From Candidatus Thorarchaeota archaeon (GTDB lineage: Archaea; Asgardarchaeota; Thorarchaeia; Thorarchaeales; Thorarchaeaceae), in the NCBI GenBank assembly GCA_029858305.1, contig JAOUFI010000040.1:1-18847 (forward strand): 18,847 nt of DNA, written 5' to 3'. Positions 1,808 through 16,371 of the stretch are shown here, one piece after another. Each line of letters begins with the position of its first letter. Position 1 is the stretch's first letter. Made by a program: the position numbers and the translations under genes. Under the pieces are notes generated by a model. The model was given only the letters and a program-made list of their open reading frames with translations, was not told where the DNA came from and did not search any database.

Positions 1808-1876
1808 TGAAAATGGCTATTATAGAATCAGATGTGCTATATTGGTAGATTATCAAACTCTTGGAAGGTTGAAACG

Positions 1877-3652
1877 ATGGATAGTATGCGAAGACAAACT
1901 GCCACTCTTTTCCTAGTCAGTAGCTTGATTATTCTTAGCCTAGGAACCAGTGCGGTGGCCACCCCAATTTCTGACTCATATAGCATGTCACAGATTGTTA
2001 CGCCGTTCAAAGAGATGCTACCTGGGATCTATGTTGCATCACAATGGTGGAATGAAACCGGAGATGATTATTCAATCAACACCGAACCTAGCTATTTTGT
2101 AGAAATCAATGATTCTCGGTATGTTGCGCAATACTATGTTGAGGACATCTATAATCAGAGCTACACAATTACTGAGAACAGCATCTCCAATTGGACCTCA
2201 GATTGGTCCTTCTCCAATCTCTTGGTTGTTATTATTCTTGATCCAGATGCTACATACATAGCTTGGCTAGCCAATCAAGGGAACACAAGTGATCTTTGGA
2301 GTATCTTCTGGTGGCCTGAATCAGGAGCCCTCTCTGGAGATGAAGTGTTCATCTATTCCTCGTTTTACTATTCTGAATACAATTCAAGTTCATACTACTG
2401 GGCTGAATATACTTGGAGAGATGAGTTCGGTGGGCTTGTGAATCCCAATGATGTGATTCCCTACTTATCTGAAGAATACATGTGGGCTTCCTACATGAAT
2501 GATACCTATGAGTTCGATTATGACTGGCATTACTGTGGTTTTGGTTATGACGTCAACGAAATGTTTCGAACAGATACAACAGAACAGTGGATGCAGCACT
2601 ACTTCTCTGGTCTAAGTGTCTTCAATGATACAAATAACAATAACAGGATGGATTTAGTCTACAGTGAGGTTCCCTATGATTTTGATGAGGATGGTACGAT
2701 TGACTGGACCAATTATGAATTGAACAGGACTGCCTCGGAACTTGTCTATGATTTCTATGCAGATAATGCAAAGATTGGTGAGATTGGTCTTCCTGCTATC
2801 AACTCTGATGGCCAGATTGAATGGAGTGCAGAGGTCATTGATATTAATGGCAACCTCCTGACAACACAGCCATACGACATATGGATATACGGGGCCTATC
2901 CTCTTGGTAGTATGCCTGAAAAGAGTGATCCGCTTCCTGTTACTATTGATAGTTTGAAGCTCACCTTCAGATTTGAAACAACAAATGATGCCGCGGTAAT
3001 CAAGATTGATCAGTTTGTTGGCGACTTCAAAGACCCTATCTCTGGTCTTATACCAATTGAATTGAATGGTCTCGGTCTTACACTCAACTATTGGAGTTCT
3101 TTCTCAAGCTATACGATAACTGGCGAGATACCTGTCGAGCCGCTCCCAGTGACTGGAGGTGAGGAACCTCTCACACCTGAAACTGGTACATATGCTGTGA
3201 CAGATTGGACAGATGCTCCTTCTGCTCCTCTAGAGAGCAATGATGTTCCTGATGGGTTTCTTAGATTCACCGAGGAATCCCATCTCCGCATGACCGTTGA
3301 GTTCGGAGGAACCTATGTCTGGGGTAGTAACGGGCTTACCTATGATGTTGGCACGGCAGTTATGCCTATGTACTTCTACAGCTATGGAATTGAGGCTAGC
3401 ACTCCCTCAGCTGATTTAGCCTTTGCATTAGACTCTTGGTGGGGTCAAACATACTACTATAGCTCGTGCTATGCAAAGTGGGATGGATACTCAGTCACTC
3501 ATGACCCAATCTTTTCAGCTTTCCCAATGAATTCGCCACTCTCTGCTAGCGCCTTCATTACCGGTCTCATTAATTCTGCAATAATTCTTGGAGTAGTTGG
3601 AATTGCCGCAATCATCGTAGTCTGTGCACGAATAAACACAGAACGGAAATAA
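1877..3652 (+). CDS. Secreted, C-terminally membrane-anchored acidic surface glycoprotein (probable beta-sandwich)
   Basis: Signal peptide MRRQTATLFLVSSLIILSLGTSAVA. Tyr/Trp/Asp-rich body with N-x-S/T sequons and DxDxDG-like loops. C-terminal TM (AIILGVVGIAAIIVVCA) followed by RINTERK. ATG 1877 follows AAGGTTGA. Confidence 0.8.
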   Translation: MDSMRRQTATLFLVSSLIILSLGTSAVATPISDSYSMSQIVTPFKEMLPGIYVASQWWNETGDDYSINTEPSYFVEINDSRYVAQYYVEDIYNQSYTITENSISNWTSDWSFSNLLVVIILDPDATYIAWLANQGNTSDLWSIFWWPESGALSGDEVFIYSSFYYSEYNSSSYYWAEYTWRDEFGGLVNPNDVIPYLSEEYMWASYMNDTYEFDYDWHYCGFGYDVNEMFRTDTTEQWMQHYFSGLSVFNDTNNNNRMDLVYSEVPYDFDEDGTIDWTNYELNRTASELVYDFYADNAKIGEIGLPAINSDGQIEWSAEVIDINGNLLTTQPYDIWIYGAYPLGSMPEKSDPLPVTIDSLKLTFRFETTNDAAVIKIDQFVGDFKDPISGLIPIELNGLGLTLNYWSSFSSYTITGEIPVEPLPVTGGEEPLTPETGTYAVTDWTDAPSAPLESNDVPDGFLRFTEESHLRMTVEFGGTYVWGSNGLTYDVGTAVMPMYFYSYGIEASTPSADLAFALDSWWGQTYYYSSCYAKWDGYSVTHDPIFSAFPMNSPLSASAFITGLINSAIILGVVGIAAIIVVCARINTERK

Positions 3653-5233: not shown

Positions 5234-6262
5234 GTGCCACGCCACAGAATCCTATTAACAGTCATTGTGAGTTTGACTTTATTATCACTAAGCTCTATGG
5301 TCACCAGCTGTTCACCAGTAGCAAACGATAGTAGAATCGCCTCTTGGTCAGGTGGGTTAATAATCGACCATAATTGTATCGATTTGAGTCTGATTCCCGG
5401 GGAATGGATTGAATCAGCTCAGGACGATATTCGCATCCATTATGCTCATACTAGTCATGGCGGACAGATTACAACTGGTCTCTCTCGACTAGAATCAGCT
5501 AATTCGACCTTCGATGTTTCTATCGGGTATCTTGTACTACCTACTGACAGTGACGCTCTTTGTATTCTTGATGGAAACCCTCCAGAGAGTTACATTACTC
5601 CTGATCTTTATTGGCAGGGAGAGAGCGCTCTGGAGCTTACACAAAAGACAATTGATGACAATCCCGCACTTACAATCTCTCTTTGGTCTTGGTGCACTCA
5701 AGTTGATTCCTACTCAGAGCAAGATGTCCAGGACTATCTTGATGCAATGACTTCTCTTGAAATTGCGAATCCTGATGTCACATTCATCTATATGACTGGT
5801 AATGCTCAGGCTGGCGGAAGCAGCGGATACAATCGTTGGTTACGAAATGAACAGATACGCCAATATTGTTTGGACAATGACAAAATCCTATTTGACTTTG
5901 CAGACCTTGACTGCTGGAGCAATGGCGATTACAGTACCTATGACTATGTTGTAGGTGAAGAAACCCTCGAGATTCCAATCGAACATCCCGACTTCAATGG
6001 TGATGAAGCTGCTCATACCACCTATACGAGTTGTGAACAGAAAGGTAAAGCCTTTTGGTGGCTTGTGGCGAATTTAGCTGGTTGGAACGCTCCCAATCCA
6101 ACAACCATACCTTCGAGCACAACTACTTCTAGTCAAACTAACTCTACCACCTCCACAAATACGCAGATAACTGGACAGATCACCCTGAGTGACGTCTTTC
6201 TGCCAATTTCCATTGTAAGTGTTGTCCTGATTACAGGCTATGCCCTGTTTCGACGACGATAA
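5234..6262 (+). CDS. Secreted, membrane-anchored SGNH-hydrolase-like protein with Thr/Ser stalk
   Basis: Signal peptide. YAHTSHGGQI (block I-like Ser), TFIYMTG, RNEQIRQYC...LFDFADLD and EAAH. PTTIPSSTTTSSQTNSTTST stalk, C-terminal TM and RRR. Confidence 0.65.
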   Translation: MPRHRILLTVIVSLTLLSLSSMVTSCSPVANDSRIASWSGGLIIDHNCIDLSLIPGEWIESAQDDIRIHYAHTSHGGQITTGLSRLESANSTFDVSIGYLVLPTDSDALCILDGNPPESYITPDLYWQGESALELTQKTIDDNPALTISLWSWCTQVDSYSEQDVQDYLDAMTSLEIANPDVTFIYMTGNAQAGGSSGYNRWLRNEQIRQYCLDNDKILFDFADLDCWSNGDYSTYDYVVGEETLEIPIEHPDFNGDEAAHTTYTSCEQKGKAFWWLVANLAGWNAPNPTTIPSSTTTSSQTNSTTSTNTQITGQITLSDVFLPISIVSVVLITGYALFRRR

Positions 6263-7177: not shown

Positions 7178-10100
7178 CTAACTCTCGTCTTCTATTGATT
7201 CAGGGGCTCGAATTAACTCGCTCGCGAATGGAGACACATCTGTGGTAACAAGATAATGCCCCTCTAAAGCTGCCATTATTGCCTTATAGACCCGGCCTTC
7301 TTCTAGGCCACATGTTGCAATCTCTGAGGCAAGTTCTTCCAGCTTGAACTGAACGCCCCGCTTTCGAGCAATCCTCTCTAAGGCACAAGTGTTCGTTGGC
7401 AATTTCTTTGCGTCGTCTAGTTTGTAGGTCCTAAGAAGAGCTCCATCAAGGCTGTCTTCGAATAATGCATCGAACTGCATCTTTGTATGCTGGTCAAGAA
7501 CAACTATCGGCACCTCACTATAGGAATCATCAAAGATGAAACCTACCTTCTTAGCAAATTGAATCATTCTCTCACGTTGTTCCGGTGATGGGTTCCCTGT
7601 TGTGATGAATGCACAGACCAATCTATTCGTAGAAATGACCCTGATTATATCCGAAATAGGAATCAGTCCCCACTCCTCTGAAGATGTTTCTATATCAAAC
7701 TCTCCTCGGAAACTAGTAATTGCTGTGATGAATGCTGAGATTACTGTTTCTTCAAGCCCATCTCTAAGGATCTTAGAATACACAGGCAATCCACTATCTT
7801 TGTGGAGGACAATAACACCTAGGAGACTTTTCACATCATCAAATCGTCTCTTAATGGCAAGAGCTATCTTGTTCTGTTGTATCCTACGCTTTCTTGCACT
7901 CCTTCTATAACCAAGTCCAACTGCTATACCTCCAATTCCTAGGTAAAATAAGAAGTATTGGCGAACTGACATAATCAACATTGTAGCAGCATCTCTTCCT
8001 GGTTGTAATCGCTCTGTGAATGGTTCATCAAGTATACAGTTGGCAACATCACACGAGATGACAATGTAGAATGTACCATCTGCCGATGGCATTTCTAAAT
8101 CTGCGGTATACACTCCAGCTGTTGCTGACGAAACCATCAGTTTGTCTTGTAGATATACTGGGACTCCATCAGATCTATGAACGTTGAAGAACACGGTTGC
8201 CCCTGTGATTGGAACTCCTGTATCCGCTTCAGTGATTTTGACTCTGAGGGTTGTTATAAAGCCCTCAAGTCCGCTGAGCCCCTGAATCACCTCAATGGCA
8301 ATCGGAACTTCCACGACTGTGAAATTAAGCCTGTAATTCCACGTTTCAAACCCGTTTCTTTCAAAGCTTAAGACAACACTATAGACTCCCAATTCTACTG
8401 GTGTCAGATTTACTGAATATTGCCCAGAAAAGAGTTCAGTAAAAGCCACCCAGCTAGCTCCCTCACCAAAGGGCACTACATTAGCATTATGGATATTGCT
8501 GCTGTTTGATTCAAACATGTAACTAAAATTGAAAAGATACGAACGTCCAATGAGTAAGTCATCCAATGAGCTTGTAAGTTGAACAGAAGTATCGATTTCC
8601 TGCACTTCAAACAGAAACTGTTTAGTTGCAATATAATGATCTGTTTTGTTTGCTGTTATGGTTAATGACCATATACCTACAGCCTGACCTCTGATGCTAA
8701 TCAAATAGTATCCTGCATATTCACTGATACTTATGATGAGTCCAGGATCCTGAGTGAGAACTGAAACATTAGCTCCACCTACATTGATCGGTGTTGCAGT
8801 ATCTGCTCGATAATAGTAGATAGTAAGTAGGTATGGTTCTTCAAATTCAACAAGAGCTGAAGAAATATCACCCTCAAACTCGATTCTTGTTTCAATTTCT
8901 GTCACAATCAACGTAAAGGCTGCACTCGAACTCTGATAGTTTTCTGCAGAACTCCTAAAGAGCACGTGGAAAGTGCCTTTTTCTAACGGTGTCAGAGTGA
9001 AATTGTACAATCCTCCTCCAAGTGGAACAACATCTAATATAGTCAAACCAGCAGGTGGATTAACGATAGTGATGTTTGCGGCATCGATGGGACTAAGACT
9101 CTCATCTTGAAAACTTAATTGCACTGTGTAGTTTTGATCCACAGCAATTCTAGCACTTGATGGAAACGATGTAAGCACTGTTGGGATGCGTGTCGCAGTC
9201 AGAGTGAATGTCACATACTGAGTTTCATGATTGAGAAGACTTGCACTCATAACCACAGAGAATGAACCCGCAGAAGTTGGTGAAAGTGTAATAGCATAAA
9301 ATCCATCAACCAGAGGTGTGAAAACTGTATAGTTTAATCCTGTAGCTGGAGTCGTTGCAAGCACTTGGAGATTTGCTCCGGGAAGTCCCGCTCCTGTACT
9401 GTTTTCATATTCTAGGACAAGTGTATAATTACCACCAAACAGGACCATATCTGCTGATCCATTGAGAAGTGTAAGAGTTGTCCCAGTTTCTCCAATGATA
9501 AGTGTAAATATGTCTGAAGCCGCATGACAATACGATTTGTTCAATGTGATTGTTATCGGATAGGTCGCTGAGAGATCACATATGATATCAACTGAATAAT
9601 GGCCATTATTGTTATCATTAAAGTTGCTCCATGACAAACCACCTCCTGGGCCTGAATGAGTGATGTCAAGCACAGCCCCTGGGATTCCGGTCCCATTAAG
9701 TAATTCATAATCCATCTGTACGGTGAAAACTTCGTTCAATCCTCGCTCTATGGGTATTGATCCAGCATTAAGAATTTCAAGTGTAGTTTGTTGTGTTGCT
9801 GTTACAATAAACTGAGTGGAAATGTCATCAAAGTAGGGTCTAGATGCAGTTACGATAACAGTGTATTGACCGCCTGTTACTAAGGACGTATCAAACTCAC
9901 CTCGCCACCAATTCTTGACCAAGTCTTGCGTAAATGGAACTGTAGAACCAGTCCAGTTTGCTGTAATTGAGATAGAATCATCAAGAAGATAGGCAGAGGT
10001 ATCTGCATCAGTATAGTAAACAAAGTTTGAGATAATCAAGCCCACATCGGTTTGGATTGTAGAATACATCGCAGGCACAGCAAGTGATGCCGTATGGTAC

Positions 10101-11902
10101 ATGTCAAAAGAAGTTGATCCATATGCAATCTCAGTACCATTTGTCCATGCCGCGACAACACGCCACTCTCCAGCTGTAGTATTCAAACCTCCGAGAGTTC
10201 TCTGGTCTGTGTTGACAACTCCACCTGTCCCTGTTGATAGAGAGTCCTGTGACCATGTAGTATCATCTGGAGATAACCAAGTCACATTGACCGGGTCTGA
10301 AATAGTCGGAGTTTCAGAAACTGTACCAAGAGTCACCGATACTCTAGTTATATTTCCTGGTCTAAAGAGTATATTTTCTGACCATCCGCCATCATAAATC
10401 TGTACATGGATAGACTCCGAATAGTTGGGTGATTCTAATGTCAACTGCCACCACCCTAATCTGTTTAAAATTGAAGTAGGAATCTCTAATGACCCGGGAG
10501 AGAATGTACATTGACCGCTCACATCATTCAGAAACGGGTCAAATACAGTAACATTCTCCCAATCAAATGGGAGATACATCTCAACTGTAAAATTCTCGTA
10601 GATGGCAACTCCTTCACTTCCTATGTATGTGAAGATAGATAAGACTGCACTTGCGCCTGCGTCTATTGTGTACGCCACACCTTCTTTCGTTGGCTGTGGT
10701 GCCCATAAGGAACTTCCATAATTGTGAGAAAGTAATTTCACTTCATAATCACATGATATACTAACATTTGCAGAGATTCCAACACTCAGTTCACTATCAC
10801 TCCAATAACTTGGATTGCTAATGATTGCAGTACCATAATTGGAGAGTTCTGTGATTGGCGTACTGAAAGTCCCAGCATTGAATGTGAGATTGACAGCCTC
10901 GTAGCTCGGTTGATTCACACTCAACAGGCTAATGTTGTCAAGAAGCACCCTGTTAATCTGAGCTAGGCTATAATCTAACTCACTATCCTCATCATAATCT
11001 GCGCCTGGATATGTAATATAGTAATCAGCGGGCGGAGGTTTGACTGTTTCAATAGAGATTCCAATCTGTAGTTCAAATGAAGAAGGTTGATCTAGTAAAT
11101 TAGGGACCACAAACTCATACCATGTATCCAATGAAGGACACTCAGTCAAGAGATCAATATAAGCAACAAGAACGCCATCAATGAGAACATCAAGCCACAG
11201 CCAACCATTTACTTCAATTGGTGGATTGTCAATAATTCCATAATTATAATTATACATGAAACTCAAGGTGAGATTGTCTGAGTAAGGTGCATTGTTAATA
11301 GTCTGATTCCAGTAGATGAAAGTTCCATCCCAATGTCTATATTCTACTAACCCTCCTGGTGTCGCTAGTTGTCCCTTACTTTCTAACACAATATACCCAT
11401 TTTCATCGTCATAGGTGGAAGAAACATTCTGTAGACCTGCACTCGGATCATCATAATCCAGACTCCATCCATATGGATATGCCGCCATTGCATTTGGATG
11501 ATAATTCGTACCAGCAATGCCATTGTCTAGAGTACCATTCTCGGCATAGAGCCTTGTCATGTTCCGCATTTCGAGTTCTGCTTGACTGCCGACCCATCCT
11601 GTCGCATTATCAATTGGGATAGAGCTTTGCTCGTTAAGACCTGAATCAGTAGAAACATAAAGTGAACCTGTTCCTGAAAATCCGTATTGCTCAACAACGA
11701 CTGGGTCAAGAACACCATTGATTGAGTCTGCAGCGATTGCTGATCTATCTTCTAATATAGGCGAGTCCAGAAATTCCTTTGCGTGTTCTAATGTGTCTTG
11801 GTTTAACTTATGAGTAGTGTCTATGTTTGCACTTGGACCACTAAACGCAGCCATGAAGAGGACAAAGACAAAAAGCGTGACTACTAGACGACGAAACGGC
11901 AT
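7178..11902 (-). CDS. 1574-aa single-pass surface/receptor-like protein: signal peptide, beta-rich N-region, about 7-8 Ig-like repeats, TM, cytoplasmic longin-like domain and C-terminal winged helix
   Basis: Signal MPFRRLVVTLFVFVLFMAAFS. Repeats of about 100 aa (T-x-L...Y...G-x-x-I-x-GAN...G-x-Y-x-I-x-L...G-x-Y). TM YFLFYLGIGGIAVGLGY followed by RRSARKRR. Cytoplasmic LLGVIVLHKDSGLPVYSK...VISAFITAITSF. Confidence 0.85.
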   Translation of the reverse strand: MPFRRLVVTLFVFVLFMAAFSGPSANIDTTHKLNQDTLEHAKEFLDSPILEDRSAIAADSINGVLDPVVVEQYGFSGTGSLYVSTDSGLNEQSSIPIDNATGWVGSQAELEMRNMTRLYAENGTLDNGIAGTNYHPNAMAAYPYGWSLDYDDPSAGLQNVSSTYDDENGYIVLESKGQLATPGGLVEYRHWDGTFIYWNQTINNAPYSDNLTLSFMYNYNYGIIDNPPIEVNGWLWLDVLIDGVLVAYIDLLTECPSLDTWYEFVVPNLLDQPSSFELQIGISIETVKPPPADYYITYPGADYDEDSELDYSLAQINRVLLDNISLLSVNQPSYEAVNLTFNAGTFSTPITELSNYGTAIISNPSYWSDSELSVGISANVSISCDYEVKLLSHNYGSSLWAPQPTKEGVAYTIDAGASAVLSIFTYIGSEGVAIYENFTVEMYLPFDWENVTVFDPFLNDVSGQCTFSPGSLEIPTSILNRLGWWQLTLESPNYSESIHVQIYDGGWSENILFRPGNITRVSVTLGTVSETPTISDPVNVTWLSPDDTTWSQDSLSTGTGGVVNTDQRTLGGLNTTAGEWRVVAAWTNGTEIAYGSTSFDMYHTASLAVPAMYSTIQTDVGLIISNFVYYTDADTSAYLLDDSISITANWTGSTVPFTQDLVKNWWRGEFDTSLVTGGQYTVIVTASRPYFDDISTQFIVTATQQTTLEILNAGSIPIERGLNEVFTVQMDYELLNGTGIPGAVLDITHSGPGGGLSWSNFNDNNNGHYSVDIICDLSATYPITITLNKSYCHAASDIFTLIIGETGTTLTLLNGSADMVLFGGNYTLVLEYENSTGAGLPGANLQVLATTPATGLNYTVFTPLVDGFYAITLSPTSAGSFSVVMSASLLNHETQYVTFTLTATRIPTVLTSFPSSARIAVDQNYTVQLSFQDESLSPIDAANITIVNPPAGLTILDVVPLGGGLYNFTLTPLEKGTFHVLFRSSAENYQSSSAAFTLIVTEIETRIEFEGDISSALVEFEEPYLLTIYYYRADTATPINVGGANVSVLTQDPGLIISISEYAGYYLISIRGQAVGIWSLTITANKTDHYIATKQFLFEVQEIDTSVQLTSSLDDLLIGRSYLFNFSYMFESNSSNIHNANVVPFGEGASWVAFTELFSGQYSVNLTPVELGVYSVVLSFERNGFETWNYRLNFTVVEVPIAIEVIQGLSGLEGFITTLRVKITEADTGVPITGATVFFNVHRSDGVPVYLQDKLMVSSATAGVYTADLEMPSADGTFYIVISCDVANCILDEPFTERLQPGRDAATMLIMSVRQYFLFYLGIGGIAVGLGYRRSARKRRIQQNKIALAIKRRFDDVKSLLGVIVLHKDSGLPVYSKILRDGLEETVISAFITAITSFRGEFDIETSSEEWGLIPISDIIRVISTNRLVCAFITTGNPSPEQRERMIQFAKKVGFIFDDSYSEVPIVVLDQHTKMQFDALFEDSLDGALLRTYKLDDAKKLPTNTCALERIARKRGVQFKLEELASEIATCGLEEGRVYKAIMAALEGHYLVTTDVSPFASELIRAPESIEDES
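8030..10095 (-). repeat. About 7 tandem diverged Ig-like domains of about 100 aa (protein-level repeat; boundaries approximate)
   Basis: Recurring pairs GTGIPGAV/NGHYSVDI, GAGLPGAN/DGFYAITL, SPIDAAN/GGLYNFTL, NVGGAN/AGYYLISI, NIHNAN/SGQYSVNL and GVPITGAT/AGVYTADL. Confidence 0.7.
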
Positions 11903-11994: not shown

Positions 11995-12615
11995 TTAGTT
12001 TCGATGAGGAAAGAACATTGGAACAGCTTTTTGATACTCTCGATAATCATTACCAAATTCCCTGACGAGCTCCTTTTCCTCCTTCCAACAGAGAAGCCAG
12101 TTAATAAGAATCACAATTGGAGTCACGAGTAGCGAATAGAATCCTGAAACAATTAATGTAATCCCGATGTGAGACAACATAGCTCCTAAATACTGTGGGT
12201 GACGAATGTGTGAATAGATGCCGGTAGTGATAATTCGCGCCGGCCTATGAGTTTCTGATGCTTTGAGACCAATCTCTGAAACTCCCCGTATTCCAAGCCA
12301 GGCCCCAGGAGCAATAAAGACCAGTGAAAGAATTAGGTGCAAAACAGGGATTTGAAGTGTGAGAAATCCAAAGATAGGAATGATGAATTGCGTTTCTTGC
12401 ATGAGGGGAATGACAAACCGTGCTTGCGGTGATACCCAGAGTCCGAACAAAAACAGGAAGATTCCCCATCCTGAGATCATACCTAGAATTACGCCAATTC
12501 TGGTACCTCTCTCTTCTCCGTACTTCTCTACTAGTCGAGCATGACTAACAGACACAAAATGAATTGGAACGACAGCGATAACGCCCAGAAACGAGAGAAA
12601 GAACCAGAATGACAT
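11995..12615 (-). CDS. Isoprenylcysteine carboxylmethyltransferase / PEMT-family membrane methyltransferase
   Basis: IITTGIYSHIRHPQYLG and EEKELVREFGNDYREYQKAVPMFFP are hallmark ICMT/PEMT motifs. Confidence 0.9.
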   Translation of the reverse strand: MSFWFFLSFLGVIAVVPIHFVSVSHARLVEKYGEERGTRIGVILGMISGWGIFLFLFGLWVSPQARFVIPLMQETQFIIPIFGFLTLQIPVLHLILSLVFIAPGAWLGIRGVSEIGLKASETHRPARIITTGIYSHIRHPQYLGAMLSHIGITLIVSGFYSLLVTPIVILINWLLCWKEEKELVREFGNDYREYQKAVPMFFPHRN

Positions 12616-12721
12616 GGGAAATGCTTTAGGCTTTCTCCAATATCACTATAGCTGTTTCAACGCAAGAGTATTATTCTAGATGCTTCATTGTTATTCGACA
12701 ATTTTACATGAGGTTGTTAGA

Positions 12722-13081
12722 ATGTCAAATGAAGAAATGCTTGAAGAATTAAGAGAGATACGAAAACTACTCACTCCTGCGCCTGCACCATCTCCACCAA
12801 AAGGACTGGTCAATGAGTTCATTGATTTCATATCCCAGTATAAGGTTCTGGGATTGGCTGTTGCGTTCATTTTGGGTATCTACATTGGTGAGGTGATAAA
12901 GGCTCTCGTCAATAGTTTCATCATGCCTTTGATTCAATTTGCTCTGCCGGGCATCGGTGGGACTGATGTGACCTATGTACTTGCAGCAGGTCCAATTGTA
13001 AACAGTATAATCACATTCATCATTGTTGCATTTGTGGTCTTTATAATCGTAAAAATCGCTACTAGAATGGGAATCAAATAA
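12722..13081 (+). CDS. mscL: Large-conductance mechanosensitive channel MscL, atypical (bundle helix at N-terminus)
   Basis: LVNEFIDFISQYKVLGLAVAFILG (S1 and TM1), ALVNSFIMPLI, and GPIVNSIITFIIVAFVVFIIVK (TM2). ATG 12722 is preceded by GAGGTT. Confidence 0.9.
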   Translation: MSNEEMLEELREIRKLLTPAPAPSPPKGLVNEFIDFISQYKVLGLAVAFILGIYIGEVIKALVNSFIMPLIQFALPGIGGTDVTYVLAAGPIVNSIITFIIVAFVVFIIVKIATRMGIK

Positions 13082-13091
13082 AGCAGCACTG

Positions 13092-13140
13092 AAAAAAAAA
13101 TATGGGAGGGGAGCATCTACTCCCCCACCTTTTCACTTTC
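13092..13140. terminator. Bidirectional hairpin terminator
   Basis: A9 tract, GGGGAG-CATCTA-CTCCCC (13108-13125), then CCTTTTCACTTTC. Lies between convergent mscL and the 69-aa gene. Confidence 0.6.
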
Positions 13141-13153
13141 TATCATACGCGGA

Positions 13154-13363
13154 TTACTTTACGGCTCCAATAATGAGCAGAATTACACCAAGTCCCAATA
13201 GAATGAGCATGAGCTCCGAGAAATCATATCCTGCTAGTGGGAGTGTGTAGATTCCCAAATAGAAGTAATCGGCATATGCTGCAAATCCAACCATTGGTAA
13301 GATAAGAGGTAAGATTCCTACTATGATAAGTAGGAGTCCGAGTATAGCTAAACCCTTTCCCAT
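13154..13363 (-). CDS. Small two-TM membrane protein (69 aa), unknown function
   Basis: Two hydrophobic helices around an aromatic loop. GGAGA lies upstream of the ATG, and the ORF fills an intergenic gap ending at a terminator. Confidence 0.75.
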   Translation of the reverse strand: MGKGLAILGLLLIIVGILPLILPMVGFAAYADYFYLGIYTLPLAGYDFSELMLILLGLGVILLIIGAVK

Positions 13364-15333: not shown

Positions 15334-16134
15334 TTACTTCTTTGGTATGACTCCAAGAACGATATGCTGTTTTCTCTGTACTAATTTGTAATAGAATCCA
15401 TCCTTCGCTAGGCATGTATTGAGGAGGAGCAGAATCCAGACTCCAATAAGAAAGACAGGTGCCAAGAGTGTTTGCATCGTTTCCACAAAAGAAACAGGAA
15501 CCATTATCACTGTTAACTGATAACCCCAATCCCTTCCTAGATACATTCCCAATCCTGCTACTATATCTATCACTCCTAGAATCAATATAGATAAGACAAC
15601 TGGGAAAAATCCAATCCAAGGAATTGGTTCATCAAGACCAAGGACTGGATATAACATTACGAATCCGAGCAAGACAAAGAATGCCTTGAGAAGTTGTGCA
15701 ATGACTGCCAGACTAAAGACGTTTTTCTGAAGTGTACCTGGACTTTTTCGTTCTTGATTATCAACACTTGCGATTCTTTCGAAACTGTAGCCTCCATTTT
15801 GTCTGATGATACCTAGGATTAGACATTGAGCAAAACTGACAAGGATGATGCTGGTAGTAGCAAACCATGAGATACCTAGTGCTACTGGAAAAAGAATGTG
15901 AAACAAACTTACACCCATCGACACACCCCAAGACTCGACCTTTAGGCTCCATAACCACCAAGCCGCTATAATTTCGATGAAACCGATTCCTGCAAGTGCG
16001 CTAGAAACTTCATTTGGAATTAGTGAGAGTGCAACGAAGATGATCGCTCTGACAACATGTATGAGGCTTGCTAAAAGAACAAAGTCGGTTCTAAAATACG
16101 GTTGTTCTATTGAAAGTTGCACTTCACATCCCAT
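15334..16134 (-). CDS. Hypothetical membrane protein with an internal duplication (2 x about 4 TM)
   Basis: SD GAGGTG lies 8 nt before ATG 16134 (MGCEVQLS), favouring this start over 16200. The halves share GIGFIEIIAAWWLWSLKVESWG / ILGVIDIVAGLGMYLGRDWG. Confidence 0.75.
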   Translation of the reverse strand: MGCEVQLSIEQPYFRTDFVLLASLIHVVRAIIFVALSLIPNEVSSALAGIGFIEIIAAWWLWSLKVESWGVSMGVSLFHILFPVALGISWFATTSIILVSFAQCLILGIIRQNGGYSFERIASVDNQERKSPGTLQKNVFSLAVIAQLLKAFFVLLGFVMLYPVLGLDEPIPWIGFFPVVLSILILGVIDIVAGLGMYLGRDWGYQLTVIMVPVSFVETMQTLLAPVFLIGVWILLLLNTCLAKDGFYYKLVQRKQHIVLGVIPKK

Positions 16135-16371
16135 ATGATTAGCACCTCGGTCAAATGGTTTGACATCCTGGGGGCAATAATAAGCATGCGAATACCGCAT
16201 CGTCTGGCGGATTTGTTAACACATTAGAATTGAACACAGAGGAATTCTTTTGCAGCAACAGCAACGATACTAGTTAGTACTTCTTAGATCGTGGTTTGAA
16301 AATGAATTAAAACTTGCATCGCAGACTAATATACGACATTAGCTTTGACACTGGATGTTTCGGACGAAGAA

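Follow-up and report, generated by a model that had tools for sequence, protein, structure and literature searches.

Bacterial channels of the MscL family (mechanosensitive channel of large conductance) carry a short cytoplasmic helix behind the second transmembrane helix (TM2). The question raised by an 18,847-nucleotide stretch of a Candidatus Thorarchaeota genome (contig JAOUFI010000040.1 of assembly GCA_029858305.1; hereafter the window) is how an MscL-like protein encoded there comes to carry a similar helix at its opposite end. The open reading frame (ORF) at 12722-13081 on the forward strand translates to MSNEEMLEELREIRKLLTPAPAPSPPKG followed by LVNEFIDFI..., and closes with KIATRMGIK and a stop codon; its 119-amino-acid product has MSNEEMLEELREIRKLLTPAPAPSPPKGLVNEFIDFISQYKVLGLAVAF as N terminus. 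Residues 3 to 17 form an extra helix, MLEELREIRKLL, and a Pro-rich linker of 11 residues comes next. The Pfam MscL model (PF01741; 51.6 bits, cut-off 27.4) does not cover the first 28 residues; columns 1 to 95 of its 123 match residues 29 to 113, and the columns of the C-terminal helix (about 96 to 123) are unmatched, the protein stopping 4 residues past TM2. The order of N-terminal helix (N-helix), Pro linker, S1 helix and an end right after TM2 had been given in a preliminary description of the window, which read it as a circular permutation of MscL, and this order is exact in both the translation and the Pfam span. The layout is a real, conserved and widespread alternative MscL layout, characteristic of a large archaeal subfamily.

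A layout of this kind could be the product of misannotation, with the true start downstream and the helix untranslated, which the preliminary description had itself considered. No evidence favouring such an artefact was found, and we regard it as barely conceivable. The sequence GAGGT stands 7 nt ahead of the ATG at 12722, which for this reason is taken as the start codon, and no Met lies between residues 6 and 68. In two homologous loci (L007 and L080) a stop codon lies immediately 5' of the corresponding Met. At the codon level, 102 synonymous and 32 nonsynonymous differences from the window separate 18 loci that were chosen for a strict motif, a choice that limits the nonsynonymous count. 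Positions with Leu draw on all six of its codons and those with Arg on up to five, with the peptide kept across phyla. This synonymous freedom, together with the kept residues of the N-helix, shows that selection acts on the peptide. An in-frame ATG farther upstream, at 12680, was considered as the start and rejected: the Met is absent at that position in an 89%-identical homologue (L003), and the stop codons of L007 and L080 contradict it as well.

The relatives of the protein are numerous. A search over 5.8 billion proteins gave 2,674 candidates of 65 to 209 amino acids, 2,651 of which are relatives; among the 120 relatives listed, query coverage is mostly 96 to 100%, and the sources label them as MscL of Thor-, Odin-, Prometh- and Hodarchaeota. 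Across 29 homologues E9, L10, I13, L17, P19 and G28 are invariant (residue numbers here and below are those of the 119-amino-acid window protein). In 189 unique N termini, I13 is conserved in 100%, L10 in 98%, L17 in 95%, E9 in 94%, L7 in 93% and R14 in 90%, and the consensus of the 12-residue helix is [MI]-L-E-E-L-[RK]-[EK]-I-R-[KE]-L-L. The linker is 11 residues long in 131 of these 189 N termini and 10 to 16 in 187, with a median Pro fraction of 0.5. The preliminary description had reckoned with a helix unconserved in homologues; the opposite was found, and its other reservation, a start downstream of the helix, is rejected by the same amino acid conservation together with the upstream stops and GAGGT. 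Few parts of the protein are as well conserved as the N-helix and the 11-residue linker, which therefore clearly matter.

The spread of the layout was followed in three further collections. In a library of representative proteins the family occupies 951 clusters at E ≤0.001, and the helix is found in dozens of the best 150 of these. A scan of one genome per species retrieved at least 497 relatives among 600 candidate stretches; inspection of the translations of the best 80 loci, which were kept, revealed helix and linker in 80 of 80. Within the Asgard archaea these 80 loci belong to Thor-, Prometh-, Hermod-, Hod- and Heimdallarchaeota, and outside them to many Bathyarchaeia, Nitrososphaeria and Methanomethylicia, one Thermoplasmatales metagenome-assembled genome (MAG) and one MAG labelled as bacterial. 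In an even sample of the phylum, MscL is present in 19 of 61 genomes, and the Pfam match ends at column 96 to 101 of 123 in all of them. The N-terminal helix and Pro-rich linker occur in all 19 genes whose N terminus is on the contig, one of the 19 being a variant form; a further copy is truncated where its contig ends, and one gene is split into two pieces.

Some loci present features of their own. The bacterium-labelled carrier (L048; DASPPK010000006.1, Candidatus Acidiferrales bacterium) encodes an MscL of the N-helix type, by horizontal transfer or through a binning error. In genome G013 the N-helix MscL gene is in two pieces (L131 and L133). Locus L055, likewise a broken copy, has an in-frame stop just ahead of the helix and an unusual C-terminal extension of 15 residues.

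Apart from its N terminus, the protein has the features of the MscL family, which we take to be TC 1.A.22. It is the single MscL match in the whole genome (3.04 Mb, 89% complete), and its eight best sequence matches in the PDB are all MscL, the first being Methanosarcina acetivorans MscL (MaMscL; 4Y7K and 4Y7J, E 2e-13). At the NCBIfam level the equivalog models are missed (45.6 against 71 for TIGR00220 and 49.7 against 197 for NF010558); judged by these scores, the protein belongs to a divergent subfamily and is no equivalog of the characterized MscLs. An AlphaFold2 (AF2) monomer model built on a 41-row alignment (mean predicted local distance difference test [pLDDT] score 84.3) displays the MscL topology of S1, first transmembrane helix (TM1), periplasmic loop and TM2. 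A Foldseek search of the PDB with this model placed four MaMscL chains on top (E 0.3 to 1.0, template modeling [TM] score 0.30 to 0.35), a lone hairpin superposing poorly. From its sequence, the gene is predicted to encode a working MscL-type mechanosensitive channel, presumably a homopentamer gated by tension. The missing C-terminal helix does not disqualify it from the family, because MaMscL is without the same domain (PMC6167328).

Given that the layout is genuine, the origin of the helix can be asked. In a true circular permutation the ancestral C-terminal helix would have moved to the front through tandem duplication, in-frame fusion and loss of the outer parts, a course that we consider improbable, although several observations speak for it. 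Both termini of MscL are cytoplasmic, and the two helices agree in their core, L-x-x-I-R-[DEK]-L-L, and in heptad register. The E. coli C-terminal sequence that the preliminary description had given for this comparison is the one read from NC_000913.3. When a 17-column profile of the N-helix was aligned by hhalign with a full-length bacterial MscL profile of 145 columns, the best match was the C-terminal helix, aligned with the eEL..IRklL segment of the N-helix (10 columns, score 20.3, P 2.9e-4, probability 40%), and the second was bacterial S1 (emLeEL against ml.EFK), with a P of 0.14. None of 300 column shuffles reached 20.3 (mean 10.0, standard deviation 2.5, maximum 20.1), and the reversed profile scored 12.4. 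In an ungapped position-specific scoring matrix (PSSM) made from 35 unique bacterial C-terminal helices (C-helices), the MscL ORF scored 13.1 bits and ranked 38th of 51,320 six-frame ORFs. These comparisons indicate that the N-helix does resemble the tail helix of bacteria, though to a small degree and over a short span.

Other tests of the same likeness weigh against permutation. The alignment spans only 10 columns, and with the bacterial C-helix matrix the MscL ORF ranks 26th when the comparison is limited to the 4,550 ORFs with 100 or more amino acids. The test is weak in the other direction: a PSSM built from 101 unique N-helices gives eleven bacterial MscL tails 4.0 to 12.3 bits, values equalled by 51 to 1,140 of 4,549 long ORFs, with the E. 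coli tail at 1,140. With an HMMER profile of the N-helix, no match at E ≤10 was obtained on the chromosome of E. coli K-12. The preliminary description had proposed aligning the N terminus with the C-terminal columns of the Pfam MscL model; a Pfam scan of six N-terminal peptides found no MscL columns, its sole match being an irrelevant one to PRIMA1 (E 0.47). A 16-position HMMER model of the C-helix placed the MscL ORF 19,520th of the 33,126 six-frame ORFs listed, at −2.7 bits, but this model is uninformative through its composition correction and was replaced by the ungapped PSSM. The protein atlas held no usable match for residues 1 to 28. Tandem MscL-MscL proteins, the expected intermediate of a permutation, were seen neither among relatives of 210 to 2000 amino acids nor in the best 150 of the 951 representative clusters, in a search that was not exhaustive; the former comprise 10 of 792 candidates, all of them fusions of a YegP/DUF1508 domain to MscL.

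The linker is a further difficulty for permutation. The same Pro linker had been said to sit at the opposite terminus, which is true of E. coli alone: across 52 unique bacterial tails, the segment from TM2 to the helix is 17 to 22 residues long, mostly charged, with a median of 16% Pro, and the PAAAPAP of E. coli is a special case among them. A Pro-rich linker is therefore not general in bacteria. The archaeal linker has 11 residues, half of them Pro, and lies on the other side of the helix; a simple permutation would place the old linker before the helix, whereas the Pro-rich one sits after it.

As an alternative source within the protein, the helix could be a duplicate of the adjoining S1 amphipathic helix, for which the weak second hhalign match to bacterial S1 is the one point in favor. 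Against the S1-to-TM2 core of its own subfamily, however, the N-helix profile scores 6.2, a value equalled by 67 of 200 shuffles, with the best match outside S1. Duplication of S1 was rejected as the source of the N-helix on these figures, and we give it very little credence.

A closer look-alike of the N-helix is found in an unrelated family of the same genome. Four tandem paralogues on contig C205, one of which matches the Pfam family bPH_2 (PF03703) with an E value of 8.5e-10, each end in a helix of the form [DE]DE[IM]L..LREIR.LL. Scored with the N-helix PSSM, the C termini DDEMLMTLREIRNVLE, EDEILSVLREIRDLLR and DDEILLAIRDIREILR reach 25.3, 23.9 and 17.9 bits; three bPH paralogues rank 1st, 2nd and 4th of 51,319 ORFs, and the best unrelated ORF has 18.6 bits. 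The hhalign score of N-helix against bPH tail is 25.5 over 16 columns (P 1.8e-5, probability 78%), a value reached by none of 200 shuffles (maximum 18.2). In an HMMER scan of the genome with the N-helix alignment the bPH tail is the best nonself match (E 0.0023), and in a second Thorarchaeota chromosome the N-helix profile matches a bPH protein ending in IEDEILSVLNEIRDLLRERR (E 0.04). Other Asgard genomes encode bPH homologues in which the C-terminal helix is conserved, and bPH matches occur in 20 of the 61 genomes of the Asgard sample. The terminal motif shared by the MscL N-helix and the bPH C termini can be written [DE][DE]-[MI]-L-x-x-L-[RK]-x-I-R-x-L-L. Because the bPH proteins carry the closer likeness, the likeness to the bacterial tail by itself cannot show relocation within MscL; the motif recurs without permutation. 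Of the earlier permutation claim, the resemblance to the bacterial LLxEIRDLL stands, as the shuffles attest, and descent by circular permutation is not shown. On balance, permutation is less likely than the recruitment of a recurrent terminal-helix motif.

The same recurrence admits a different function, in which the N-helix would be a docking or regulatory motif shared with the bPH proteins, binding a common cytoplasmic partner or pairing MscL with bPH. A nearly identical terminal motif on two unrelated membrane families, repeated in the second Thorarchaeota genome, speaks for this, as do the conserved, surface-exposed charged positions (e.g., E8, E9 and R14) and the placement of the helix on a tether, flexible or stiff, apart from the channel body in the model. 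On the other hand, MscL of the N-helix type is common in Bathyarchaeia, where neither of the two genomes searched holds a second carrier of the helix, and within the Asgard sample bPH is found in 20 and MscL in 19 of the 61 genomes. The a/d/e/g hydrophobic pattern fits self-association, and in the window no conserved partner gene lies beside mscL. We therefore hold docking to be an unlikely function, about on a par with permutation as an origin.

The distribution of the two helices over MscL bears on the origin as well. Among 348 full-length MscLs, a sample seeded from the window protein and one Bacillales MscL and biased accordingly, 231 are of the N-type, 71 have the bacterial C-helix motif, 15 have other N-terminal extensions, 31 have neither and none has both. 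The survey of mutually exclusive helices that the preliminary description had suggested thus came out as it anticipated, and such strict exclusivity favors permutation. A quick tree of 83 MscL cores (89 columns) separates a bacterial-type clade, made up of 11 C-type rows and 8 without the motif, from the rest with a Shimodaira-Hasegawa-like approximate likelihood ratio test (SH-aLRT) value of 98. A tree that keeps 27 N-type rows together, with five rows of unjudgeable N termini left out, lies 91.7 log-likelihood units above the free quick tree; its P value in the approximately unbiased test (p-AU) is 0.997, and a single origin of the N-type is for that reason not rejected. Core-only MscLs, such as MaMscL (PMC6167328), fall on the archaeal side of the tree, so that loss of one helix followed by gain of another is as economical as permutation. 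The reading that we prefer for the origin is that this archaeal lineage acquired a common terminal-helix motif once.

Five MscLs without a C-helix (P0206, P0216, P0232, P0210 and P0207) have N-terminal extensions of a different kind, which are charged, 24 to 32 residues long, without the EIR motif and probably helical. N-terminal extensions of MscL may have arisen more than once.

What the helix does is suggested by its heptad pattern. In our own assignment M6 and I13 occupy position d, L10 and L17 position a, L7 position e and L16 position g, with E9 (94%) at g and R14 (90%) at e. A broad a/d/e/g core suits a higher-order coiled-coil bundle. Hydrophobic residues at a/d and e/g, together with the g-e' charge pair, are what the sequence of a parallel coiled coil would be expected to present, and E9 and R14 would be placed for its i-to-i'+5 interhelix salt bridge. 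Five N-helices could then form a parallel coiled-coil hub on the cytoplasmic pore axis, with the Pro-rich linkers as spokes joining the hub to the N termini of S1, and the Thr-Pro cap with the fixed, half-Pro linker of 11 residues acting as a stiff spacer. Because the linker is so short, the C-terminal end of the helix would have to face the membrane, and the bundle would be upside-down with respect to the bacterial one. The YegP domains that precede the helix in all 10 long forms fit a helix whose N terminus points away from the membrane. Such a hub may do the job ascribed to the bacterial bundle, that is, stabilize the pentamer and act as a prefilter, while attached to S1 rather than to TM2; by pulling on S1 instead of TM2 it could set the threshold or limit the expansion of the channel. 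A prediction with four copies of residues 1 to 30 gave values of the interaction prediction score from aligned errors (ipSAE) of 0.33, 0.37 and 0.26, where the mark is 0.42 and the controls reach 0.02, 0.12 and 0.12; this result leans neither towards bundling nor away from it.

We consider it moderately probable that the N-helix forms a hub on an ordinary MscL core, that it was acquired as a terminal motif and that it is a functional analogue of the bacterial tail helix; the analogy itself is probable. Several points weigh against this account. Bundling of the N-helices is a prediction from their sequence pattern, and the confidence of the monomer model in the N-helix is moderate (pLDDT 73 to 77). 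The helix has a net negative charge and might just as well serve for docking to a partner. It has some likeness to the bacterial C-helix (hhalign P 2.9e-4; PSSM rank 38 of 51,320) and may share its descent. In two Bathyarchaeota genomes the N-helix profile matches MscL only, and the link to bPH may be confined to Thorarchaeota. Resolution of the 89-column MscL tree is poor (51 of its 80 inner branches are open), and the bacterial MscL sample is biased towards Bacillales. As to the channel itself, MaMscL comes first in the fold search without significance (E 0.3, TM score 0.30 to 0.35), and the NCBIfam equivalog models are not reached, so that the function is a prediction for a divergent subfamily without a characterized member.

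A bolder version of the hub account would make it, coupled by stiff polyproline spokes to S1, an active gating element that governs threshold or expansion, rather than a passive sieve. The helix would then be a portable terminal module, either a relocated MscL tail or one exchanged with ring-forming membrane proteins such as bPH, perhaps coassembling with them. We rate this version as doubtful.

Coordinates are those of the window unless a contig is named, and the features discussed are collected below.

Features of the mscL gene, its product and the bPH_2 gene cluster
Feature	Position	Strand	Basis and remarks
mscL-family gene	12722-13081	+	119 codons + TAA; Pfam PF01741, E 1.5e-13
GAGGT, Shine-Dalgarno-like site	12710-12714	+	Read from sequence; 7 nt 5' of ATG 12722
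N-terminal amphipathic helix, residues 3-17 (NEEMLEELREIRKLL)	12728-12772	+	AF2 helix, block pLDDT 73-77; conserved
Pro-rich linker, residues 18-28 (TPAPAPSPPKG)	12773-12805	+	Without secondary structure in AF2 model
S1 amphipathic helix, residues 29-39 (LVNEFIDFISQ)	12806-12838	+	AF2 helix; Pfam match begins at residue 29
TM1 pore-lining helix, residues 42-74	12845-12943	+	AF2 block pLDDT 91-97; aligns to TM1 of MaMscL and E. coli MscL (EcMscL)
Periplasmic loop, residues 75-89	12944-12988	+	No AF2 helix; variable region in alignments
TM2, residues 90-115	12989-13066	+	AF2 helix, pLDDT 96
Cytoplasmic tail MGIK (4 residues) + stop, without C-terminal helix	13067-13081	+	Translation; Pfam match ends at column 95/123
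Four tandem bPH_2 paralogues	Contig C205, 50659-53720 (locus L083, 3660-6721)	+	Membrane proteins of ~250 amino acids each

The genes around mscL in the window encode a PEMT/ICMT-like methyltransferase, an AlkZ-like glycosylase, helix-turn-helix (HTH) regulators, a fragment of a Na/H exchanger, TspO, DinB_2 and an aldo-keto reductase, and none of the neighbors in the window shows a functional link to mscL. Between mscL and a convergent ORF for a hydrophobic protein of 69 amino acids (13154-13363, reverse strand) lies an 8-bp hairpin rich in G+C with a T-run behind it, as read on the reverse strand (13107-13126); it is the sole terminator-like site in 12550-13200, where shuffled sequences have a mean of 0.2. 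A 1,574-amino-acid ORF at 7178-11902 on the reverse strand, whose only Pfam match is a subthreshold one to CarboxypepD_reg (31.5 against 32.3 bits), is probably a large surface protein. Three further ORFs have no Pfam family at E ≤0.001, as follows: 1832-3652 (forward, 606 amino acids), 5234-6262 (forward, 342 amino acids) and 15334-16200 (reverse, 288 amino acids).

A search of the full-text literature, covering open articles but not their supplements, retrieved no account of MscL in a permuted form or with a helix at its N terminus. The role of the cytoplasmic bundle of MscL is debated, with a sieve, an oligomer stabilizer and a gating element as the options (PMC5722894, PMC6167328). Hundreds of archaeal species present the natural converse of the bacterial construct, with the tail helix gone and a look-alike tethered to S1. 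The layout offers a natural test of what the helix bundle does in MscL, and is of moderate to good interest for channel biophysics. That the helix recurs on bPH membrane proteins, an unrelated family, may point to a general terminal module for oligomerization or docking in Asgard archaea.

Those bPH_2 proteins resemble the window MscL in one part only. Their terminal helix, [DE]DE[IM]L-x-x-LREIR-x-LL, resembles the MscL N-helix more closely than anything else in the genome, whereas the family and fold are unrelated, with an N-terminal hydrophobic (predicted transmembrane) region and a PH-like domain. Their helix is C terminal, and the position equivalent to E9 is hydrophobic.

The YegP/DUF1508-MscL fusions (PF07411 and PF01741; P0132, P0146 and P0391 to P0400) share N-helix, linker and core with the window protein, and differ from it by one or two cytoplasmic YegP-like domains ahead of the helix. 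All 10 relatives longer than 209 amino acids, which come from other metagenomes, are N-terminal fusions of this type to an N-helix MscL.

Among channels of known structure, MaMscL (4Y7K, closed; 4Y7J, expanded) is the best solved relative, matching residues 27 to 112 with an archaeal-type core. It too is without the C-terminal cytoplasmic helix (PMC6167328), but it starts directly at S1, with neither an N-helix nor a Pro-rich linker: the first residue of the tagged MaMscL chain to align is 21, which pairs with residue 27 of the window protein.

Bacterial MscL (EcMscL and the Mycobacterium tuberculosis channel, 2OAR; PF01741, TIGR00220) has the same core of S1, TM1, loop and TM2, and the same kind of short cytoplasmic amphipathic helix, with a core of L-x-x-I-R-x-L-L and a linker to the membrane part. 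The C-terminal bundle formed there is thought to stabilize the pentamer and to act as a sieve, and to stay largely assembled during gating (PMC5722894). Its removal has mild effects and MaMscL is naturally without it (PMC6167328), and S1 has been proposed to couple the channel to the bilayer (PMC4917966). In bacteria this helix comes after TM2, with its N-terminal end facing the membrane and a linker of 17 to 22 mostly charged residues, whereas in the window MscL the look-alike comes before S1, joined to it by 11 residues that are 50% Pro, in a protein that ends 4 residues past TM2.

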